In this document: positions 2,317 to 63,033 of the stretch, one piece after another
Layout: every line of letters starts with the position of its first letter
Position numbering within the stretch: the first letter of the stretch is position 1
Source: Moorena sp. SIOASIH
Lineage (GTDB): Bacteria > Cyanobacteriota > Cyanobacteriia > Cyanobacteriales > Coleofasciculaceae
Assembly: GCF_010671925.1 (NCBI RefSeq)
Contig: NZ_JAAHIH010000001.1
Coordinates: forward strand, 933,053-997,052
Direction of reading: 5' to 3'
DNA: 64,000 bases
Translations under genes and position numbers: made by a program
Notes under the pieces: generated by a model
What the model was told of the DNA's origin: nothing
What the model saw: the letters and a program-made list of their open reading frames with translations, nothing else
The model's database searches: none

Positions 2317-3396
2317 TTAAGAAGCTGATCCTGAGTTTTCTCCAACTCGTCTAGACACTTCAACACCGTTTTCTTCCAGAATCACCACTGGATCTAAACC
2401 TCTAAACATTTCAATTCGCTTGACTAGCACTTGTCCACCTAATATAAACTGTCCAGCTTGAACACTACGACTAGGCTCATTAGGGACATCTAGGATAGCG
2501 TAATAGACACCCCTACCATTGTCAACTACCCCTGTGACACTGATTGTATATGCCAGCTCTGGTTCTGGTAGGATTGGCAGTTGCAGATCAAATTCAGGAG
2601 GGATAGGAGGAATACCATCCTTGACAACAGAGCTATTGTCTGGTATGGAACTAGGCTTAGCTTTGCTGGTCTCTGTAGGCCGAGTGTTCTCGCGCCGTGG
2701 CAAAACATTTCCTCTTGATGAGCCAGGAGACCTTCTAGCGATTGATGAGCTTGGAGGCTTACGGTCGGGCCTGGTAGCTCTTGAGGGGCTGGTGGGTCTG
2801 CTAGCTCTTGAGGGGCTGGTGGGCCTGGTAGCTCTTGAGGGGCTGGTGGGCCTGGTAGCTCTTGAAGGGCTGGTGGGCCTGGTAGCTCTTGAAGGGCTGG
2901 TGGGCCTGGTAGCTCTTGAAGGGCTGGTGGGCCTGGTAGCTCTTGAGGGGCTGGTGGGTTTTACCGCTACACTACTTCCTGTTCCAGGACGCGATCGCAA
3001 AGGCGGTCTTGCTGGTGGAGGAGTCAGAGGCTGTACCCTCGTAGGGGAGCTACTTGGTCTGCCGGGATTGGGCAAAATCTCCACCTCTGGTTGCACTGAA
3101 ATTGCCGCAAACGGGTCAAGACGCCCCTTATCAATCCGATTTCTTACTTCATTGCTTGGCAAGGTGGTGATCAATGGTGGTATTGGTATTACCTTTTCCT
3201 GCTCCGGTGTTTCCGGGGATTTAGGAGCAAATTCAGCTACAGGAGGAGAAGGTTTGGTGCTATCCGGGGAAGCCACCGGCGTTGGTTTAGGGGTAGTCTG
3301 CTCCCCCTGTTCAGTCTTTCTACCCGGTTGACAGCCTCCTATAAGCAGAGCCAGCACACTCACCCATACGATGCATGATACTTTACCCATGACCAC
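2317..3396 (-). CDS. Proline-rich putative lipoprotein with 9 tandem SPSRATRPT repeats and a C-terminal beta-rich domain
   Basis: Signal peptide ending in LLIGGC (lipobox-like). Long P/S/T-rich linker encoded by a 27-bp DNA tandem repeat. Globular C-terminus. Confidence 0.55.
   Translation of the reverse strand: MVMGKVSCIVWVSVLALLIGGCQPGRKTEQGEQTTPKPTPVASPDSTKPSPPVAEFAPKSPETPEQEKVIPIPPLITTLPSNEVRNRIDKGRLDPFAAISVQPEVEILPNPGRPSSSPTRVQPLTPPPARPPLRSRPGTGSSVAVKPTSPSRATRPTSPSRATRPTSPSRATRPTSPSRATRPTSPSRATRPTSPSRASRPTSPSRATRPDRKPPSSSIARRSPGSSRGNVLPRRENTRPTETSKAKPSSIPDNSSVVKDGIPPIPPEFDLQLPILPEPELAYTISVTGVVDNGRGVYYAILDVPNEPSRSVQAGQFILGGQVLVKRIEMFRGLDPVVILEENGVEVSRRVGENSGSAS
2768..2962. repeat. 27-bp in-frame tandem repeat (about 7 copies, GGGCCTGGTAGCTCTTGAAGGGCTGGT-like) inside the lipoprotein CDS
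   Basis: Read directly in the sequence; encodes the SPSRATRPT units on the minus strand. Confidence 0.9.
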
Positions 3397-3540: not shown

Positions 3541-3722
3541 CAACTCAAGTAAGCATTCAGCCGTCAGCCGTCAGCCGTCAGCCGTCAGCCGTCAGCCGTC
3601 AGCATTCAGCTGACGTAACAAAGATTAAACGAATGCTTACTTGTTTTATTTAAAAGCTCAAAGCTGAGAGCTTATAGCTGATAGCTTATAGCTTATAGCT
3701 GATAGCTGATAGCTGATAGCTT
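3541..3722. repeat. STRR heptamer arrays (CAGCCGT)n and (AGCTGAT/AGCTTAT)n
   Basis: Direct reading: about 9 copies of cagccgt, then alternating agctgat and agcttat units. Confidence 0.9.
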
Positions 3723-16598: not shown

Positions 16599-18772
16599 GT
16601 GCGGCCTGTTCTTGCTAGGAGCCTAGGGCAACCCTAGGGGTATGAGTAAGGAATCCGCGAGGGTAACACCCTCAAAAGATTTAACTGTCTAACGGATGTG
16701 GGTGCAAACCCCACCCTTGAGGAGACAAGTGACTCCCTACCTTGACCACACCGAGCGGGCGGTATCTCCGCAGAGTGAAGCTGGTACCAGGGCGCAATCA
16801 GTTGACCATAAGCAGGTAACAACACTGGCGCTAATGGGGAGGTGACATGGGAAAACTGGTTCTAAAAAAGTGTCTGAAAATCAAGCCACAACCTGAAAAC
16901 CAATGTGGACTTCATCCTTTCATTCTCGCAGCATTTTTTCTGTGATAGCTGCAAACTCCGAGAAGAGGATAGGCAAAGTGAACCTCCCTAAATCACCATA
17001 ACAATCTGATAGATGGAACAGGTAAAAACGACAGAAATGAGGTCTAAGGAGTAGTCGAACCTTAGTAAGTTATGCCAAACCTAATCCCTCCTGTCGGGTA
17101 GGATGTAGCCGAAAAACTGGCTACGGGTATCCAGAATATAGAAATCCAATGGAGAGCATGGTTAGACACACAAAAAAAATTTGTAGTGAACTATGGAAGA
17201 GTCAAAAGTGGAAACAACTCCGCCGCCACCTATTCCGCCTACAGAGGAGACTATACAAAGCAGTTCAAGCTGGCGACCGTCAGAAAGCTAGGTCTCTACA
17301 AAAACTGATTCTGAAATCTCGTTCAGCACAACTTTTGGCAATACGTCAAGTTACACAGCTAAATCAAGGCAAGAGGACAGCCGGTATTGATGGGAAGTCT
17401 TCCCTTGATTGCCGGGAGAGATTCGAGCTTCTAGATAACCTGAACCACTATGCCTATAATTGGAAGCATAGCGAATTAAGGGAAATACCCATTCCTAAGA
17501 AAAATGGAAAAACTCGAATCCTTAAAGTTCCTACAATCGCCGACAGAGCATGGCAATGTTTAATAAAATATGCTCTAGAACCAGCTCATGAAGCGACGTT
17601 CAGTGCTGACAGCTATGGATTTAGACCTGGTAGGAGCGCACAAGATGCGCAAAAACGCCTATTCAACCACCTAAAATCCGACGCCAACGGCATAACAAAA
17701 AGAGTAATCGAATTAGACATCAAGAAATGCTTCGACAGGATTTCACACGACTCTATAATGGAAAGGCTCATAGCCCCACAATCCATTAAATCAGGAGTAT
17801 ACCGATGCCTGAAAGCAGGCATAAATCCGGAATTTCCAGAACAAGGGGCTCCACAGGGAGGCGTCGTAAGTCCACTATTAGCAAATGTAGCCTTGAACGG
17901 CATAGAAGATTGTCACCCTTCGATACGATATGCGGACGACATGGTGATAATCCTCAAACCAAAAGATAACGCCGGAAAAATCCTTCAAAAATTCAAGGAT
18001 TTCCTGGCCGAACGAAAAATGGAAATAAGTGAAGAAAAGACCAAGATAACCAAAACGACAGACGGATTTGACTTCCTGGGCTGGAACATTCGAGTCCAGA
18101 AAAACGGAAAGTTTAAAAGTATTCCCTCAGAGGAAAATCACAGAACAATCCGAAAGAAGATTAAAACCGTGGTCAACAGCTCGAATTATGGTGCAGAAGT
18201 TAAAGCCAAGAAATTAGCGCCGATTGTACGTGGATGGAGAAACTACCACAAAAACTGCGATATGAGCAGCAGCCGGGATAGTTTATGGTTCATGAATAAA
18301 ACCGCAAACCGTAAATTCCGAAAGGAGAAAAAGGTAAACCGGTATCAAGCTAATGAACTATGTGATAAAGCCTTCCCAGCAGTGGGGTACAAACAAAACA
18401 AACACGTCAATGTCAGAGGGACTAAGTCCCCCTTCGACGGGGACTTAGTATACTGGAGCAAACGCAACAGTAAGCTCTATGATAACGCAACATCAAAAAC
18501 TTTAACCAAGCAAAACCATTCCTGTGAACATTGCGGACACAAGTTCTTAAGCGACGAATATGTACACCTTCATCACGTCGATGGAAACCACGACAATTGG
18601 AAGCCAAAGAACTTAATGGCAGTTCACCAAAGCTGCCACCAAGAAATCCACTGGAGCAGGCCAAAAGGCAAGTCGAGAGACTGAAGGATATCTAGGAGCT
18701 GGATGAAGGGAAACTTTCACGTCCAGTTCTGAAGGAGAGGTGCTCCCGATAATATGGGACATCGACTCTAAC
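16599..18772 (+). mobile_element. Group II intron (bacterial, ORF in domain IV)
   Basis: 5' GTGCG at 16599. Domain V hairpin GAGCTGGATGAAGGGAAACTTTCACGTCCAGTTC at 18697-18730. 3' end ...CTAAC at 18772, set by comparison with the intron-less paralogous site at 56081-56106. Encodes an RT/maturase/HNH protein. Confidence 0.85.
17149..18684 (+). CDS. Group II intron-encoded reverse transcriptase / maturase with C-terminal HNH endonuclease
   Basis: RT blocks (RIPKKNGKTRILKVP, YADD active site in RYADDMVII) and an HNH/zinc-finger tail (CEHCGHK...HHVDGNHDN...CH). Confidence 0.9.
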   Translation: MESMVRHTKKICSELWKSQKWKQLRRHLFRLQRRLYKAVQAGDRQKARSLQKLILKSRSAQLLAIRQVTQLNQGKRTAGIDGKSSLDCRERFELLDNLNHYAYNWKHSELREIPIPKKNGKTRILKVPTIADRAWQCLIKYALEPAHEATFSADSYGFRPGRSAQDAQKRLFNHLKSDANGITKRVIELDIKKCFDRISHDSIMERLIAPQSIKSGVYRCLKAGINPEFPEQGAPQGGVVSPLLANVALNGIEDCHPSIRYADDMVIILKPKDNAGKILQKFKDFLAERKMEISEEKTKITKTTDGFDFLGWNIRVQKNGKFKSIPSEENHRTIRKKIKTVVNSSNYGAEVKAKKLAPIVRGWRNYHKNCDMSSSRDSLWFMNKTANRKFRKEKKVNRYQANELCDKAFPAVGYKQNKHVNVRGTKSPFDGDLVYWSKRNSKLYDNATSKTLTKQNHSCEHCGHKFLSDEYVHLHHVDGNHDNWKPKNLMAVHQSCHQEIHWSRPKGKSRD

Positions 18773-21437: not shown

Positions 21438-21759
21438 AGATTTGCGGGCATAGCGTTTGTGTTAGCTAAGGCCACGAGTTAGGGGCTACGGTTAGATTGT
21501 AGAGCTTTACTAGGCGCAGTGATTCCCAATCAGACTAAGAAAATAGACTATTGAGGGGATCGCGACCAACTGTCTCGAAATGCATCTGATTATTTTTGTA
21601 TTTGACTCACAGGCTAACCCCTGTCTTCTTGTCTTGATGCAGTCGCTGATGGTGAAAACCCCCTTTGGCCGCGCTGCATCGCTTTTAGCTTTGTTGTCAC
21701 GCCCTCAACCCAAATACTTATAATCAAAATATCAACACGGAGGCTTGGCATATGAGCCT

Positions 21760-22171
21760 CGCAAAGTTTATTCAACCTATGGAGATTTTGGTCTTATTTA
21801 AGAACTAGTGCAACAACATAAAATTGTTTTATTTTGAAAATAAACTTATTAAAATTTACAAATTGTTTATATTTAAACTATTGAATAATTAATAAAAAAA
21901 CATAATATAAACTTTAAGGTTATTATGCTCTTGTTTTTATTGATTAAATTGAATTATTTAGTCTAAATTTAATAGATTTAAATAGCATTTAAAATAGTTT
22001 TTATTGATAGTAAAGTCTGCTATAAAAAGGTTTTATTGATGGTATTTAATCACTCCCAAAAGCTATTATTTATGATCCTCATATTTTTTTTAAATACATT
22101 AGCCAATCTTATAAATAAATTGTGACATTATTACCAAAACCTGGCTAGTCTAAACTAGAGCTTAGAATATT
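21760..22171. promoter_or_regulatory. Extremely AT-rich (about 20% GC) 400-bp block upstream of the 22172 operon
   Basis: Base composition read directly. Contrasts with the roughly 45% GC elsewhere. Confidence 0.6.
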
Positions 22172-25375: not shown

Positions 25376-27145
25376 ATGAGAAAATTTTTGATATTGTGTC
25401 TGTTTGTAATAGGGCTGGGTTTTGCCCTGTTTAACTTTAAAGGATTGGCAAATCAGGGGAATTTTGAGTCGATTGTGATCGACTTCCGGGAAGATATCCC
25501 AGCTGCTCAACTTAATGAGCAATTGCAAGCGATCGCACAACAATACGAGGTTAATCCCCAACTCAATAGTGAATTTTCAGCAGCGGATCACATTTATATC
25601 CTAAAAGGAGATAAACAACTGCTGAATACCCTGAAACAATCAGGACTCTCCCAAGCAACAGAATATATTGAACCGAACTATACCTATAGTGCCTTCGAGG
25701 TTCCCAATGACCCTGACTATGGCAAGCAGTGGAACCTGCGCAGCATTAATGTAGAATCTGCCTGGGATGACACCAAGGGTAGTGGCGTAACAGTAGCAGT
25801 GATTGACACTGGGATCAGCGCAGTCCCGGATTTGAAAGATACTGAATTTGTTGAAGGCTACGACTTTGTCAATGACCGGATTGAAGCATGGGATGATCAA
25901 GGTCACGGTACTCACGTAGCCGGTACCATTGCCCAATCTACCAACAATGGTTACGGTGTTGCCGGAATTGCTTACGAAGCTAGCCTGATGCCCCTAAAGG
26001 TATTGGCAGCCAGTGGTGGTGGTACAGTGGCTGATATTGCGGAAGCAATTCGCTTTGCCGCTGATCATGAGGTAGATGTAATCAACATGAGTTTAGGAGG
26101 GGCTGGTGAAAGCAATCTGATGGCAGAGGCAATCGACTATGCCTATCACAAAGGTGTTGTCCTAGTGGCTGCTGCTGGTAACTCTAACCAAAATGCTGCC
26201 GCTTATCCTGCCCGCTATCCCCATGTTATTGGTGTTTCTGCCCTTGATTCCGCAGGTCTGAAAGCTCCCTACTCTAACTTTGGTGCTGGGGTAGATATCT
26301 CAGCCCCTGGTGGCAGTGAAAATGGTAAGATTTTGCAAGAGACGATTGATGGAGAGACAGGCAGCCCCGTATTTGCTGGCTTCCAAGGCACCAGTATGGC
26401 ATCGCCTCACGTTGCTGGTGTGGCAGCTTTAATCAAAGCTAGTGGGATTCAAGACCCTGCTGATGTGTTGAATGTACTCAAGCAGTCTACCCGAGCGATA
26501 GAAGATGACCCCCTAAACCACTATGGTGCTGGACAATTGGATGCTGGTGCTGCGGTTAAACTGGCTCTGAAAGGACAAATTACCTTCCAAGACTTCTTCC
26601 GCTGGTTACGGGATAACGGCTATCTCAATCCTCGCTTTTGGATTGACGGTGGTGTGATCGCCCTGTGGCCAAAGATTGCTATGGTACTAGGTTCCTACCT
26701 GTTGGCCTGGTTCTTGCGCAATTATTTTCCCTTTACTTGGAGTTGGTCCCTGGCCACTGGCTTAGTAGCCGGGAGTTCAGGATTATTCTTCCTGAAAGGT
26801 TTGTATATATTTGACTTACCCCAATGGCCCTTCCGAGTCATGGGCAGTTCGATTCCAGAATTGGGTAGCGCTATTGGCAGCAGCAGTTTTCTTAACCCTC
26901 TATTTGCCAGTGTTGTGATTCCATTTATATTAATCGCGCTACTGTTAGGACATCCCCAATGGAAGTGGTTAGCAGTTGGTTCAGCTCTCGGTGTGGCCAG
27001 TTGCCTAGCCGTGAGTGCTGTGGTCTCACCTGAGCTAATCTGGCTTGGAGGCGGGGTTTTGTCTCGGGTGTTCCTGATTGCCAATGCCTTGCTCTGTTTT
27101 GGACTAGCTTATTTAGCCGTTCAAGGGGAGAAACAATCAGCATGA
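25376..27145 (+). CDS. S8 subtilisin-like serine peptidase fused to a C-terminal polytopic membrane domain
   Basis: Signal peptide. The D/H/S triad blocks VAVIDTGI, HGTHVAGTIA and GTSMASPHVAG. About 5-6 predicted TM helices in the last 170 aa. Confidence 0.85.
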   Translation: MRKFLILCLFVIGLGFALFNFKGLANQGNFESIVIDFREDIPAAQLNEQLQAIAQQYEVNPQLNSEFSAADHIYILKGDKQLLNTLKQSGLSQATEYIEPNYTYSAFEVPNDPDYGKQWNLRSINVESAWDDTKGSGVTVAVIDTGISAVPDLKDTEFVEGYDFVNDRIEAWDDQGHGTHVAGTIAQSTNNGYGVAGIAYEASLMPLKVLAASGGGTVADIAEAIRFAADHEVDVINMSLGGAGESNLMAEAIDYAYHKGVVLVAAAGNSNQNAAAYPARYPHVIGVSALDSAGLKAPYSNFGAGVDISAPGGSENGKILQETIDGETGSPVFAGFQGTSMASPHVAGVAALIKASGIQDPADVLNVLKQSTRAIEDDPLNHYGAGQLDAGAAVKLALKGQITFQDFFRWLRDNGYLNPRFWIDGGVIALWPKIAMVLGSYLLAWFLRNYFPFTWSWSLATGLVAGSSGLFFLKGLYIFDLPQWPFRVMGSSIPELGSAIGSSSFLNPLFASVVIPFILIALLLGHPQWKWLAVGSALGVASCLAVSAVVSPELIWLGGGVLSRVFLIANALLCFGLAYLAVQGEKQSA

Positions 27146-27369
27146 CGATCAGCATCACAGGCGTGATTGAGCGCAAAGAGATGGGGTCAGGAGTCTGGGC
27201 ACTGGTTTCTGACTCAGGGGGGGAAACCTATGAACTCAAGGACACTCCCGCACAGTTAAAGCAATCGGGACTGAAGGTCACGGTTACAGGAGAGGTGCGA
27301 GAGGATGTGATGACCTTTGCGATGATTGGTCCGGTTTTGGAGATCAAGTCCTTTGAGTTACTTGATTGA
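27142..27369 (+). CDS. Small hypothetical protein (75 aa), translationally coupled to the S8 peptidase (ATGA overlap)
   Basis: The 4-bp start/stop overlap suggests co-expression. No motif recognised. Confidence 0.4.
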   Translation: MTISITGVIERKEMGSGVWALVSDSGGETYELKDTPAQLKQSGLKVTVTGEVREDVMTFAMIGPVLEIKSFELLD

Positions 27370-27399
27370 GTATCTTGCCTCTTAAAGCAAGATAATCAG

Positions 27400-27465
27400 G
27401 ACGTAAGTATTCAGCTATCAGCGTGTCGCGTATCAGCTATCAGCTGACGGCTGAATGCTTACATC
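27400..27465. repeat. STRR-associated dispersed repeat (AGCTATCAGCGTGTCGCGTATCAGCTATCAGC ... GAATGCTTAC)
   Basis: The same unit is present at 2083-2110 and, inverted, at 18850-18890. Confidence 0.85.
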
Positions 27466-28088
27466 AGGACTTACCCATCAAGACCCTTAAAGCCCGCTTT
27501 CTAGTTATAAATCAAAGGCTGAAATCGCTGTAATTAGCGTCGATAAGCGGGTTTGTGCATCAGTCCTGACAAGTTAAGATGCTCCGGATCACCCTATTTG
27601 CCCATCATCCCATCAGCCTATTTCCCCATCACCCCATCACCCCATGTTCACTAGCTCCCTAAAAGCTATGCTCAAACATTATCTACCGATGGGGTGAAAC
27701 CCCAAGACTCAGTAATTACCGAGTCTTGTCAAAATCTTTACAAAAACCATAACAAAGCTCAAACAATACACCTAGAGCTTCTCCCTAAGACTGACAAACT
27801 GGTTAATACCAAGGATTAGGCAGTGTTGACCTGAATTAGCCAAGTTGAGGATCAGGCTGACTAAAATGCTCTGCAGACAGTGATGAAACCCCAAAGGAGT
27901 ATCTTGGGGAAAATTTCAGATGTTAAGCTAGTTGATAACACGCTTATCATAGTATCGATCAACCTAACCCTAATCCTTTCTCCTGGAAACCTTACTGATT
28001 CAGTAAATCCAAGGCTGGGTATGAGTACCAATTTCCAAAGGTGAAATTAGCTGGTTGCCAAGGCAATTTCCCCTGTTTTAAGTGCTTA

Positions 28089-28465
28089 AGACCGTGTCTT
28101 GATGCAAAGCGCGAGTGGGGGAAACCACGGCAGTTGCTCATCGGGGGAACCCCCAAGACCGCACTGCCTCACGGTCATCTCAAGCACCATTAGCAAGTTC
28201 AGGTGACGTGACCTCCCCAAGACCGTAATGGTGCGTTTGACCCGTAATTAAATTCGCCACGGGTCGCACCTCTGCATAGCTTAATCAGTTGGTGTTTAGA
28301 AGAAAAGGAGCAAGCAAACTAATCTATAGAGATGGCTAGATAGAGTGGGTAACACCTTACCACCCAGCGATGCAGCGCGGTCTTGGGGAGGCAGCGCGGT
28401 CTTGGGGGTTCCCCCCATGAGCGACTGCCGTGGTTTCCCCCATGAGCGACTGCATCAAGAAGTGA
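28089..28465. repeat. Large imperfect palindrome (about 95-nt arms, about 140-nt spacer) built from sub-repeats (GGGGGAAACCACGGCAGTYGCTCATSGGGGG and CCCCAAGACCGC)
   Basis: The reverse complement of 28370-28465 aligns to 28089-28165 and 28205-28225 with more than 85% identity. Candidate MITE or structured regulatory RNA. Confidence 0.8.
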
Positions 28466-28811
28466 AAAAAAATCCCCAGCTCACCAAAGTGAACCGGGGG
28501 TGTCAATCAGGGTGCATCTACCATTTCACTTTTCCGAGATTGGTGATAGCAATCCGGAAAAATCTGGGTAAAGTGGCACCCAAATGCTGGAATTAGGAAA
28601 TTTTCTGATTCACAACAATTAACAGAGTATGCCTTGGAAACCTTAAATAAAAAACGGCATCAATACCATGAGCCAACAAGAATTTTCCCCTAAAGGAATA
28701 CTCCTCAATAAGCAAATAGTAAACAAATATTCAAGAATTTTTAAACCTTCAGCCAAAGCTCGTCACTATGAGCAAAATTGATCCCTTGAAATTGAGCAAA
28801 ATTGGGCAACA

Positions 28812-31340
28812 GTGGCACAGGAATTCCATATCTCCGTAACCCCCTTAGGAAAACATGATGATTATCTGGTGCGCATCGAACGAGTGGCACCGGGAGTCTC
28901 ATTGGCAGAAGAACAAGTCAGTTGGCCGGTAGAAGAATGGTTAACCCAGGCCAAGCAACTGATGAATGACCCCCTATTTAGTGTCCTGCAGGGTAGGGCA
29001 GCTGGGGTGGATGGCAGTTTTGCCATGCCATCTTGGGGAGAACCGTACTCTCAATCCTCTTTAAACTTAGTTGCCTTGGGTCAGGAGCTATACAATGCCC
29101 TATTTAAAGGAAGCTTGCGCGATAGCTGGATGATGGCGCAAGCGATCGCTCAAAATCAACGGTCGGTTTTGCGGCTGCGTCTGGGATTGAAAGGCACAGA
29201 ATTACCCCGCCTACCTTGGGAAGTGCTTCATGCTGGGGATCGCCCCCTAGCCACAGGAACTGATGTGGCTTTCTCCCGCTACCAAATGACTAAAGGCTTG
29301 ATTAGACCAGTTCCTAAGCCTTTCTCCCAACCGAATCAACCTCTGAAAATTTTGATGGTGATCGCGGGTCCAAGTGATCAAGAAAGTTTAGAACTCTTAC
29401 AAGAAGCATCTCACCTGAAAGAAGAACTCCGCCATCGTTCACCCAATGGCCCCCCAGCGATTCATCTGACAATTCTGGAACAGCCAGGACGGGAACAGTT
29501 AACCCAAGCCCTGGAACAAGGAAAATATCAAGTCTTCCACTATGCTGGTCACTCTAACCTAGGGGAATCAGGTGGTGATGTTTACCTGGTTAGTAAAAAA
29601 ACTGGTTTGACAGAGACCGTAAGGGGTGATGATCTAGCGGGATTGTTAGTTAATAATGGTGTCCAGCTGGCTGTATTCAACTCCTGTCGTGGTGCTCATA
29701 CAGCTGCTTCAGATAGCCAGGAAAACGGTAACGATCAAAATCTCGCCCAAGCACTGGTTAAGCGTGGTATTCCTGGTGTTTTAGCCATGGCAGAGCGCAT
29801 CCCCGATGAGGTAGCCCTGACCCTAACCCGACTATTATACCGTAACATCAACCAGGGTTATCCCATTGACCTAAGCCTCTCGCGAGCTAGACAAGGACTC
29901 ATTTCTGCTTATGGCTCGAACCAGCTTTATTGGGCATTACCTGTTCTCTATCTGCATCCGGAATTCGATGGTTTCTTGACCAATGATGACCAGAGTTATG
30001 ACCGAAATCAAATATTTAGCCTGCCCGATCCTCCTGGAATGTCTGTAGGGTTAGACCCAGAAGAGGGTTTTTTTACACCACCAGCAGATAATGATTCTAC
30101 CACATTCTCAGAATTTGAGGAAGAGTCAGCTCTTGTCTCTAGGGGAGAAGCTGAGTATGACCATGAAAGTCTCACTGGTGTACCACAGGGTTTAGAATCT
30201 CATCCACTAGAAGCAGACGATCCCGCTGCTTTCATTAAGGGATTGCTGGATCAGCTGAATACAGAGGCTCAGGGTGGGGAATCAACAATAGCAGCATCGA
30301 ATTTAGAGGGGTTATCGGAAAACCCTTACTCAGACACTGCTCAGAAGAACTTACCAGTCCATACCCCAAGTCAACTCCCTGCTGCTAGGAAAGCAACAGC
30401 TGCCACCCTGACTGCGGCTTTGTCTACGGAGGGCTCAACCCAATCAGCGCCAAAGCTTGAGGATACCACAGCAGCAGTTGAGGCTAAAAAGGTAACTAAT
30501 CCTAAACAGAAGGGTTCAAGGTTACCACGTTCACCATTGTGGATCGGACTAGGAGCAACGGGAACTCTTGCCTTAGTACTTTTGGGCGTTTGGTTTTTCC
30601 AGAACCCTCCTACTTCTGGGCCAGGGAGACAATTACCACCAGGTCTCTCCAAACCTGTTGATTACTCAAATGTGAATTTGAAAAAAGCTAAAACCAACAC
30701 GGTCACAGCGATCGCAATTCAAGCATTCAGTAAGGGTAATATTATTCGAGGAACCGAAGCTGTAACGGCATTGCTAGACCGGGGTGCATTACCCGAGGCT
30801 TCTGCTGCCCTTCAGGAAGTTCCCTCAGAACAATTGAATCAGTCAATGGTGAGTTTTTTAAGAGGGCGTCTGGCATGGCAGTCGATCCAGACCGGCTCGG
30901 ATGAATACAGTCTGGATGATGTCAGACGTTATTGGCAAAGAGCAGTCAAACAAGAACCTGACTCTTGGACTTACCGTAATGCCCTAGGGTTTGCCTATTA
31001 CGCTGAAGGCAAATACGAAGGAGCTAACCAAGCTTGGTATGATGCATTGTACAGGAGTAGCAACAAGAAATCTACAACAGTTGGATCTGGAAAATCCAGC
31101 AATTCCCAAAAATTGAATACCTATGCTGGCTTAGCGCTAGGGTCGTGGAAATCGGCTCAAGAACAAAACGGAGCTAAGCGGGCGAGTTTGTCCCAACAAT
31201 CCCTCAAGCTACGGCAACATGTGCTCACCAATGACCCGATTAACTTCCAACCTGATGCCTTGAGCAAGAACTGGCTTTGGTCACAGCAAGCGATTAAAGA
31301 TTGGCAATCGCTTTTAGAGGTTAGAACTTCTAACAATTGA
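28812..31340 (+). CDS. Membrane-anchored CHAT-domain (caspase-like) peptidase with a C-terminal TPR-like region
   Basis: CHAT core with His in FHYAGHSNLG and Cys in AVFNSCRGAH. One TM helix (LWIGLGATGTLALVLLGVWFF). C-terminal helical repeats. GTG start. Confidence 0.8.
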   Translation: MAQEFHISVTPLGKHDDYLVRIERVAPGVSLAEEQVSWPVEEWLTQAKQLMNDPLFSVLQGRAAGVDGSFAMPSWGEPYSQSSLNLVALGQELYNALFKGSLRDSWMMAQAIAQNQRSVLRLRLGLKGTELPRLPWEVLHAGDRPLATGTDVAFSRYQMTKGLIRPVPKPFSQPNQPLKILMVIAGPSDQESLELLQEASHLKEELRHRSPNGPPAIHLTILEQPGREQLTQALEQGKYQVFHYAGHSNLGESGGDVYLVSKKTGLTETVRGDDLAGLLVNNGVQLAVFNSCRGAHTAASDSQENGNDQNLAQALVKRGIPGVLAMAERIPDEVALTLTRLLYRNINQGYPIDLSLSRARQGLISAYGSNQLYWALPVLYLHPEFDGFLTNDDQSYDRNQIFSLPDPPGMSVGLDPEEGFFTPPADNDSTTFSEFEEESALVSRGEAEYDHESLTGVPQGLESHPLEADDPAAFIKGLLDQLNTEAQGGESTIAASNLEGLSENPYSDTAQKNLPVHTPSQLPAARKATAATLTAALSTEGSTQSAPKLEDTTAAVEAKKVTNPKQKGSRLPRSPLWIGLGATGTLALVLLGVWFFQNPPTSGPGRQLPPGLSKPVDYSNVNLKKAKTNTVTAIAIQAFSKGNIIRGTEAVTALLDRGALPEASAALQEVPSEQLNQSMVSFLRGRLAWQSIQTGSDEYSLDDVRRYWQRAVKQEPDSWTYRNALGFAYYAEGKYEGANQAWYDALYRSSNKKSTTVGSGKSSNSQKLNTYAGLALGSWKSAQEQNGAKRASLSQQSLKLRQHVLTNDPINFQPDALSKNWLWSQQAIKDWQSLLEVRTSNN

Positions 31341-55989: not shown

Positions 55990-56290
55990 TATAGTTTTAG
56001 GGTAAGCATTCAGCCGTCAGCTGTCAGCTGTCAGCCTAATGCTTAAAATAAACCTCGAATGGGAGAATTTAATAGTTCGAGATTTTATCGAATTGAAATT
56101 CTGGGGAAAAGCCCTTGGCCTGTGGCCGCGCTACTTGAGGTGCAGATGTAACTCAGATTAAACGAATGCTTACCTCTTTTATTCAAAAGCTGTTCGCAAA
56201 GCGTGCGCATCGCCCATAAGTTGATAGCTGATAGCTGATAGCTGATAGCTGATAGCTGATAGCTGATAGCTGATAGCTGATAGCTTACAT
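55990..56290. repeat. STRR arrays plus a dispersed repeat unit (AATGCTTAAAATAAA...GGGAGAATTTAATAGTTCGAGATTTTATCGAATTGAAATTCTGGGG), and (GATAGCT) in about 9 copies
   Basis: Intron-less paralogue of the group II intron insertion site, lying in the devC-devA intergenic region. Confidence 0.85.
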
Positions 56291-62779: not shown

Positions 62780-63033
62780 AGGATAGTCAATAACTCACCG
62801 CTAAATCTTTAAGATTATAGCGGGAGCTTGTAAAAAGCTCATAGTTGACCAGACTAAGCTCACTTATGAGCTACGTTATTTCGCTCATGACACCTACAGA
62901 TACGTGCCAGTTTGTAGCAACTGTCGTACAGCTTTAAACAGGTGTAACGAGTTAAGCCAGTGAGTTGTACCTAACAAGGCGTTTATAACATTGTCAAGGC
63001 AAACTTTACCCACATTGTGGAGTGATCAAAGTA
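62780..63033 (+). ncRNA. Candidate omega-RNA scaffold associated with IscB-2
   Basis: Shares conserved blocks with 53472-53693 (CTCATGACACCTACAG..., ...CTGTCGTACAG..., ...CATTGTCAAGG...). Confidence 0.35.

Follow-up and report, generated by a model that had tools for sequence, protein, structure and literature searches.

Two small dispersed hairpin repeats as the probable source of a long inverted repeat upstream of a HetF-like gene in Moorena

A stretch of 64,000 nt from Moorena sp. SIOASIH (contig NZ_JAAHIH010000001.1, positions 933,053 to 997,052; hereafter the window, in whose numbering coordinates are given unless a locus is named) carries a long imperfect palindrome in the intergenic spacer that precedes a gene encoding a HetF-like CHAT protease. 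The locus raises the question of whether this palindrome acts on hetF as a leader RNA, moves as a single element, or is neither. We favour the last answer and assign a probability of about 0.85 to the reading that the palindrome is a by-product of two small dispersed hairpin repeats, inserted separately in opposite orientations, with no dedicated role in hetF. The two arms are independently present or absent among related loci, have the same termini, show no target duplication and belong to a dispersed family with simple and nested size classes. The arms are complementary to each other because both come from this one family. A striking hairpin is explained in this manner as repeat debris, and a tempting but false regulatory element is removed from the region upstream of hetF.

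Structure of the inverted repeat and its two inserts

The sequence-only reading of this DNA described an imperfect palindrome built of sub-repeats around a spacer of about 140 nt and located immediately 5' of the CHAT gene. The palindrome lies where it was placed. A repeat search of the window returned main arms of 55 nt (28116-28170 and 28388-28442) that are 95% complementary, and gapped local alignment extended them to 28097-28170 and 28388-28460, with 66 matched and 6 mismatched positions and 3 gap columns once the second arm is reverse-complemented. The proposed spacer length holds only for an inner pair, 28212-28225 and 28378-28391, which is complementary at 14 of 14 positions and encloses about 140-150 nt; between the main arms there are 217 nt. 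The repeated motifs reported inside the arms were recovered: GGTTYCCCCCATGAGCGACTGC occurs twice (at 28407 and 28432), as does GAKGCAGCGCGGTCTTGGG (at 28369 and 28388), and CCCCAAGACCGY occurs four times in the window versus 0.17 occurrences expected from shuffles. A 22-mer of the arm is found twice, versus 0.00 in shuffles, and the motif copy announced near 27700 is present there as CCCCAAGAC. The very long hairpin predicted to form upon transcription was also borne out, as RNA folding of 28080-28480 yielded a long hairpin of -213.3 kcal/mol, compared with -127 ± 6 kcal/mol for shuffled sequences (z = -13.5). The inverted-repeat structure far exceeds chance. The palindrome ends at 28460, which is 351 nt upstream of the GTG start codon at 28812.

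Four syntenic Moorena loci, L001, L003, L004 and L006, featuring hetF upstream spacers of 1317, 1071, 1030 and 2640 nt, respectively, were compared with the window using BLAST and MAFFT. The left arm is a compound insertion, in which (T)GTCTTGATGCAAAGCGCGAGTGGGGGAAACC is followed by the nested inner unit ACGGCAGTTGCTCATCGGGGGAACCCCCAAGACCGCACTGCCTC, a filler of about 47 nt (28168-28214) and a second hairpin module (28226-28280), which reads GGTGCG..ACGGGTCGCACC and closes with ..CTCTGCATAGC. This second module is dispersed and was found again in about ten Moorena loci; the filler was found nowhere else in the data compared. The ATGCAAAGCGCGAGTGGGGGAAACCACG variant is also present in L078 and L105. 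L003 and L004 are devoid of the left insert and display the empty site TTAAGACCG/TTSRTCAGTT (the slash marks the insertion point), and other versions of the insert are found in L001 and L006.

The right arm, read on the minus strand, is TCTTGATGCAGTCGCTCATGGGGGAAACC[ACGGCAGTCGCTCATGGGGGGAACCCCCAAGACCGCGCTGCCT]CCCCAAGACCGCGCTGCATCGCT. It starts 4 nt past the U-tract of the terminator of a small RNA gene, NsiR1, and folds on its own as a nested hairpin (-50.5 kcal/mol, z = -5.4) that is stable on either strand. L001 and L006 lack this insert, and their empty site reads CTTACCACCC/AGTGAAAAAAAA. The content of the right site varies, as it is filled by a 52-nt simple unit in L004, by 95 nt in the window and by a variant of roughly 110 nt in L003. 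Both inserts have the common ends TCTTGATGCAG...GCTGCATCGC; each, in its own orientation, starts with (G)TCTTGATGCA and finishes with GCTGCATMGC(T). Comparison of filled and empty sites revealed no target duplication at either insert beyond 0-2 ambiguous bases. The block between the inserts is single-copy sequence, which is conserved at 93-98% identity in every syntenic Moorena locus regardless of the inserts present there, and occurs nowhere else.

The left insert is thus found in the window, L001 and L006, and the right insert in the window, L003 and L004. More distant hetF loci from Symploca (L129), Lyngbya aestuarii (L130) and Crinalium (L131), together with L132, in which the hetF spacer measures only 349 nt, retain the synteny, hetF and a single NsiR1 gene; none of the four contains a copy of the repeat family. 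Because the arms vary independently in Moorena, the right one being absent even from the closest relative, L001, and the distant hetF loci carry no copy at all, the palindrome appears, from these alignments, to be lineage-specific, built by two separate events and dispensable for the hetF/NsiR1 locus. To judge from the distant loci, the empty state is likely to be ancestral at both sites. Metagenome scans for further spacer haplotypes with AATCTATAGAGATGGCTAGATA and GTGTCAATCAGGGTGCATCTACCATTTCAC returned 0 matches each.

A dispersed family of hairpin repeats

Whether the arm belongs to a mobile MITE family was asked at the outset, and a scan of 185,579 species genomes (596 Gb) with the 19-nt core motif GCAGTCGCTCATGGGGGRA showed the arm sequence to be widely dispersed. 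At least 120 stretches matched, whereas about 9 chance matches would be expected over the whole collection by our own estimate, which assumes uniform composition. All of the matches listed, to which the counts of copies given below refer, are cyanobacterial. They include Moorena bouillonii, M. producens, several Moorena metagenome-assembled genomes, Okeania, Dapis and many Nostoc strains, as well as Calothrix, Scytonema, Xenococcus, Waterburya, Pleurocapsa and Crocosphaera. Several genomes carry multiple copies, with at least 9 stretches in M. bouillonii PNG, at least 10 in Moorena SIO3H5, and at least 6 each in SIO3I8 and M. producens 3L.

The basic unit, of about 50 nt, is (G)TCTTGAT-GCAGTCGCTCATGGGGGAAACCCCCAAGACCGCGCTGC-ATCGC(T). 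Among the matches listed, the simple unit TCTTGATGCAGTCGCTCATGGGGGAAACCCCCAAGACCGCGCTGCATCGC is represented by 37 elements of 50-52 nt, 22 of which are sequence-identical. A nested class, in which one unit sits within the loop of another, comprises 12 elements of 94-97 nt (for instance in L023, L035, L039, where it occurs twice, L113 and L121) and has the architecture of the right arm. The Nostoc copies listed have a 38-nt core embedded in other outer shells, and this core is almost invariant across orders. Family units fold as hairpins, as either RNA or DNA, with z values of about -5.

The window contains three family sites. The third copy, GTCTTGATGCAGTCGCTGATGGTGAAAACCCCCTTTGGCCGCGCTGCATCGCT, is a simple unit located away from the palindrome, within the intergenic region 21438-22171, and folds at -20 kcal/mol (z = -3.3). 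At 27689-27728, ATGGGGTGAAACCCCAAGAC resembles the loop region of the repeat unit and is followed by a 13-nt near-perfect hairpin (CAAGACTCAGTAA/TTACCGAGTCTTG); this segment, which all Moorena relatives retain, may be the decayed remains of a fourth copy. Neighbours in opposite orientation within 600 nt of each other were met in only 2 other pairs among the 134 sites of the matches listed, and inverted pairing does not recur as a unit of the family.

Insertion sites outside the hetF locus were informative. Tandem arrays of heptamers are cleanly interrupted by units, with no duplication, in L045, L064, L086, L101, L111 and L121. The heptamers are of the TGCTCCC, TACTCCC and TGTTCCC types, and all insertions occur at the same phase, after CCC, suggesting that heptamer repeats are a preferred target of the units. 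Some copies lie in very long stop-free frames (2666, 831 and 679 aa; L029 198-247, L079 3726-3763, L085 1807-1856 and others) and may have inserted within coding genes. Targeting of terminators or A/T runs was not seen: in a set of 60 elements, a run was found within 25 nt only in the three NsiR1-site copies, compared with 3.5% in the random background.

In Okeania and Dapis, the 50-nt unit is always placed at the same point of the 3' end in a single lineage of TnpB-like open reading frames (ORFs), in opposite orientation (L010 7028-7078, L016 2843-2892 and L095 3699-3748; the same flanks are found in L022, L044, L056 and L118). The unit is either a passenger in that insertion sequence or a part of its end or guide-RNA region. 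An extra TnpB gene (OrfB_IS605/Cas12f-like) is also found in the hetF upstream spacer of one Moorena-like metagenome lineage (L006/L007, 3786-4982).

These features fit a scheme in which two family members would have landed separately, in opposite orientations, on either side of 85 nt of ordinary sequence in the spacer that precedes the HetF-like gene. Each arm would be a compound element, built up as further units, along with other modules, nested within the loop of a resident unit. The units would spread as non-autonomous elements through hairpin-dependent, duplication-free insertion, with the hairpin serving as the recognition feature. The candidate mechanisms are copy-and-nest recombination and transposition as a single strand, of the kind known for IS200/IS605 elements or for REP-RAYT systems (repetitive extragenic palindromes and their associated tyrosine transposases).

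The hetF spacer and competing explanations

The spacer (27370-28811; 1442 nt) separates a 75-aa ORF from the 842-aa ORF of the HetF-like gene. Earlier described as an ORF-free leader of 1.4 kb, it is not merely a leader, as it carries an NsiR1 gene on the minus strand, which had been overlooked (Table 1). The Rfam match (RF02399) reaches 66.1 bits versus a gathering score of 39 (E = 7.7e-11) and covers model positions 1-60 of 60. The intrinsic terminator, made of a stem at 28474-28499 and a U-tract at 28465-28472, was also picked up by a separate terminator scan. NsiR1 is divergent from and antisense-oriented to hetF and adjoins the right arm. Its placement and orientation upstream of hetF are shared by the NsiR1 genes of 8 other loci, which represent 5 genera, and the TCCGGA motif of its promoter is invariant in an alignment of 6 loci from 4 genera. 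Neither the window nor any of these 8 loci contains a tandem NsiR1 array; all have a single copy. Decayed extra NsiR1 copies were considered as an origin of the palindrome and rejected, since no second NsiR1 match was obtained in the window even at E values up to 10.

In Anabaena PCC 7120, NsiR1 is present in 12 tandem copies upstream of hetF, and the hetF-proximal copy is antisense to the hetF 5' untranslated region (UTR) and represses hetF translation (PMC9045159). The transcription start site (TSS) of Anabaena hetF is located at -256, inside nsiR1.2, and the 5' UTR is long (PMC8406250). To judge from sequence conservation, the functional content of the Moorena spacer appears to lie in NsiR1, an antisense-oriented gene preceded by a DIF-motif promoter, and not in the palindrome.

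The downstream protein contains a Pfam CHAT domain (E = 5.5e-27) and matches the NCBIfam model NF045509 (CellDiv_HetF) over residues 1-837 versus model positions 1-834 of 836; the score of 925 bits (E = 3.6e-278) falls short of the equivalog cut-off, which is set at 1200. Aligned over 100% of its length with the Crinalium PCC 9333 protein that bears the name HetF, it shows 52% identity, and its nearest relatives (90-94% identity) are encoded by Moorena (Moorea) metagenome-assembled genomes and metagenomes. Exact-protein look-ups of the HetF-like protein and of P0016 returned no record. The GTG start assigned to the gene in the sequence-only reading is plausible, as the whole ORF (100%) is covered in alignments with relatives that are 840-843 aa long. 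One transmembrane-like segment is found at about residues 578-600. The synteny of the hetF locus is conserved in the related loci compared. Scans of the spacer for a plus-strand sigma-70-like promoter and for a plus-strand terminator-like site found neither.

The palindrome might be taken for one composite mobile element of roughly 370 nt, either a miniature inverted-repeat transposable element (MITE) or a doublet resembling REPINs, inserted as a unit. The inverted arms with common family termini do recall a REPIN or a MITE with long terminal inverted repeats, and the inverted doublet is a known mobile form of REP-type repeats (PMC3116915). Each arm, however, is found without the other in syntenic relatives, the single-copy middle block is kept where an arm is missing, inverted neighbours are as rare as described above, and the outer ends show no target-site duplication. 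Of the roles first suggested, that of a mobile repeat comes closest, the arms belonging to a repeat family dispersed in many cyanobacterial genomes; the MITE proper fails in that two separate elements of opposite orientation are involved and no target-site duplication is seen at either insert or in the heptamer arrays. Insertion as a single composite element is accordingly the least probable of the explanations weighed, and we give it almost no credence. A cis-acting RNA of the hetF leader (an attenuator, a thermometer or a processing site) controlling the CHAT/HetF gene would be in keeping with the great stability of the hairpin in any transcript that crosses the palindrome and with the length of the Anabaena hetF 5' UTR, the TSS being at -256 (PMC8406250). 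It is nonetheless very improbable. One or both arms are missing in all 8 other hetF loci (L001, L003, L004, L006, L129, L130, L131 and L132), among them near-identical Moorena loci without one arm and distant loci without both. The palindrome also ends far enough from the start codon to be clear of the ribosome-binding region, the promoter scan revealed no convincing plus-strand candidate upstream of it, and no plus-strand terminator-like site was found. Rfam assigned no family to the arms: mir-30, Spot42, SpF11 and chrB-a appeared at a permissive threshold, far below their gathering scores.

The right arm alone might matter, having been co-opted where it stands, next to the NsiR1 terminator and pairing region and possibly in the hetF 5' UTR, as an additional terminator, an insulator or an RNA-stability hairpin, a fate reported for certain REP and MITE copies. 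One nucleotide position is filled by three different versions in three lineages, the fold is stable on either strand, and MITEs and REPs can stabilise or destabilise adjacent mRNAs (PMC3733652). Co-option is unlikely all the same, as the site is empty in the closest relative, L001, and in L006, both of which have identical NsiR1 and leader sequences, and other family members show no preference for A/T runs or terminators. A related and equally doubtful idea, drawn by analogy with Anabaena, is that the site 4 nt past the NsiR1 terminator is a preferred landing or nesting site. Were the hetF TSS upstream of NsiR1, an arrangement known from Anabaena, a variable hairpin cassette would lie in the hetF 5' UTR beside the region of NsiR1 pairing and would tune the NsiR1-hetF antisense switch from lineage to lineage.

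Several observations weigh against two separate insertions without a role in hetF. The pattern of inserts cannot be explained by two gains alone, because L001 has an empty right site, whereas that of the window, L003 and L004 is filled. L001 is the nearest relative of the window in every segment and is 99.7% identical to it in 28461-28811, the stretch abutting the right insert, yet its site is empty. At least one further event has to be assumed, be it a parallel insertion, an excision that was precise or an exchange by recombination between haplotypes. A mobilising gene did not emerge either. Clustering of 1194 ORFs from 120 loci of 8 kb revealed no recurrent Y1/RAYT-like protein and no recurrent transposase beside the copies, the clusters consisting otherwise of unrelated housekeeping functions only; TnpB-like ORFs occur in only 12 of the 120 loci, a frequency judged not clearly above background. 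Finally, if by analogy with Anabaena the TSS is upstream of NsiR1, the hetF 5' UTR may include the right insert, which may then exert an incidental effect on expression; a local effect of this arm on read-through from NsiR1 is likewise conceivable, although the closest relative does without the arm.

Other features of the locus deserve mention. The 75-aa ORF follows a gene encoding an S8 peptidase/DUF5942 protein (25376-27369 for the pair), and the S8 peptidase/DUF5942 gene with its 74-75-aa ORF is also located directly upstream of the NsiR1/hetF spacer in L001-L006 and L129-L132, a pairing seen in Moorena, Symploca, Lyngbya and Crinalium. At the upstream end of the spacer, a segment with other short repeats (Table 1) is absent from L003 and L004 and present in L001; a 20-22-nt piece of it, around ATCAGCTGACGGCTGAATGC, recurs at 2082-2103, 3549-3568 and 56002-56023. 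A direct repeat (AAAATCTGGGTAAAGTGGCAC/AAAATTGGGCAACAGTGGCAC) at 28559-28579 and 28798-28818, whose copies are 76% identical and 239 nt apart, could be due to chance or be a relic duplication; its second copy overlaps the hetF GTG start. Mobile-element content elsewhere in the window includes a HEARO RNA (IscB/HNH-associated; 62786-63009, plus strand; Rfam 132.9 bits) and a group II intron domain (18694-18772, plus strand; Rfam 58.8 bits). No tRNA genes were found in the 64 kb.

Table 1. Features of the window and positions of NsiR1 in related hetF loci (the latter in locus coordinates).
Feature	Coordinates	Strand	Basis or remarks
Third family copy, simple unit	21631..21683	+	nhmmer, simple-unit profile, full-length, E = 4e-13
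Presence/absence segment, 189 nt, other short repeats	27423..27611	.	Hairpin 27394-27471, CCCATCA-type runs
Left arm, 186-nt compound insertion	28095..28280	+	Empty site in L003 and L004
Block between inserts, 85 nt, single-copy intergenic	28281..28365	.	In all five loci
Right arm, 95-nt nested element, unit in loop of unit	28366..28460	-	Empty site in L001 and L006
NsiR1 small RNA gene, single copy, with intrinsic terminator	28465..28523	-	Rfam RF02399
TCCGGA, DIF-type -35 motif of the nsiR1 promoter	28553..28558	-	30-35 nt upstream of the predicted NsiR1 5' end
HetF-like CHAT protease/cell-division protein gene, 842 aa, GTG start	28812..31340	+	Pfam, NCBIfam, Crinalium homologue
NsiR1 in L001	5654-5712		
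NsiR1 in L003, L004 and L006	5647-5705		
NsiR1 in L129	3749-3808		
NsiR1 in L130	3735-3794		
NsiR1 in L131	3601-3660		
NsiR1 in L132	about 3138-3208		

Relation to known repeat classes and to the NsiR1-hetF module

The small dispersed repeats (SDR) of Nostocaceae, reportedly described by Elhai et al. in 2008 (Genome Res 18:1484; cited in PMC4390886, PMC5861425 and PMC3116915), are said to be very small non-coding modules present in many copies, some of them self-complementary and mutually nested, which insert precisely and without duplication, often into other short repeats. The hairpin family, likened to SDR here by description and not by sequence, is similarly a very short non-coding module with many dispersed copies (at least 120 stretches). 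Its modules are nested, as evidenced by the 12 elements of 94-97 nt and by the Nostoc core in different shells, and its insertion is precise and duplication-free, both in heptamer repeats and at the two arms, where the ambiguity is limited to 0-2 nt. The 38-nt core is, moreover, shared with many Nostoc genomes, in which it lies inside other shells. No SDR-like repeat was found outside Nostocaceae according to PMC5861425; in contrast, Moorena, Okeania and Dapis have the hairpin family in abundance, and it reaches several unicellular genera, its further hosts including Xenococcus, Waterburya, Pleurocapsa and Crocosphaera. A self-nesting, SDR-like hairpin repeat outside Nostocaceae widens the material in which the mobilising machinery may be sought.

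Repeats of the REP/REPIN-RAYT system are likewise short imperfect palindromes, mostly extragenic and highly repeated, which lack target-site duplications and form hairpins as single-stranded DNA or RNA (PMC3116915; PMC3733652). In REPs, one end of the palindrome bears a conserved tag, either GTAG or CGTC (PMC3733652), whereas the unit consensus TCTTGATGCAGTCGC...GCGCTGCATCGC contains neither. The inverted doublet is also not recurrent in the hairpin family, with 3 opposite-orientation pairs in all, the one in the window included, among the matches listed, and a search of the sequence around the copies, in 120 loci of 8 kb, met no RAYT-like gene. Bacterial MITEs, such as Nezha in cyanobacteria, Correia/NEMIS, RUP and ERIC (PMC3733652), resemble the family in being non-autonomous, in having terminal inverted repeats, in the size of the compound forms (95-240 nt) and in presence/absence polymorphism between strains. 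They differ in that the hairpin family shows no target-site duplication at the inserts or at heptamer-array sites, has a basic unit of only about 50 nt that grows by self-nesting, and has yielded no parent insertion sequence with matching ends; beside the copies, one TnpB lineage carries the unit at its 3' end.

The ends of IS200/IS605-family elements and their miniature derivatives, the PATEs, undergo hairpin-dependent insertion without duplication. Points of resemblance are the duplication-free insertion, the unit at the 3' end of a TnpB-like ORF in Okeania and Dapis, and the TnpB gene in the L006 spacer. In contrast to the distinct left and right ends of IS200/IS605 elements, however, the hairpin family has one hairpin per unit; its tie to TnpB concerns one lineage only, and no TnpA (Y1) was seen. 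Taken together, the arms of the palindrome are SDR/REP-like small dispersed repeats whose behaviour matches that of SDR. REP/REPIN and MITE are poorer matches because there is no GTAG/CGTC tag, the doublet is not a unit, there is no target-site duplication and no parent insertion sequence was identified.

The NsiR1 gene that flanks the right arm closely resembles the NsiR1-hetF module of heterocystous cyanobacteria, in which a 60-nt NsiR1 with a terminator and a TCCGGA motif at -35 is divergent upstream of hetF (PMC9045159, PMC4030482, PMC8406250); the DIF motif was defined as TCCGGA near -35 of the Anabaena nsiR1 promoters (PMC4030482). Two differences stand out. The window and its relatives have a single copy, whereas heterocystous strains have a tandem array of up to 12, a hallmark of NsiR1 along with HetR-dependent, heterocyst-specific expression, and Moorena and its relatives form no heterocysts. 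The literature that we found describes NsiR1 only as tandem arrays in heterocystous strains. Because single-copy NsiR1 with a DIF motif is present upstream of hetF in the non-heterocystous filamentous Moorena, Symploca, Lyngbya aestuarii and Crinalium, the comparison of these loci suggests that the small RNA-hetF module arose earlier than heterocyst differentiation. This by-product of the analysis, one NsiR1 copy with a promoter of the DIF type upstream of hetF in filamentous cyanobacteria that form no heterocysts, is more interesting than the palindrome itself.

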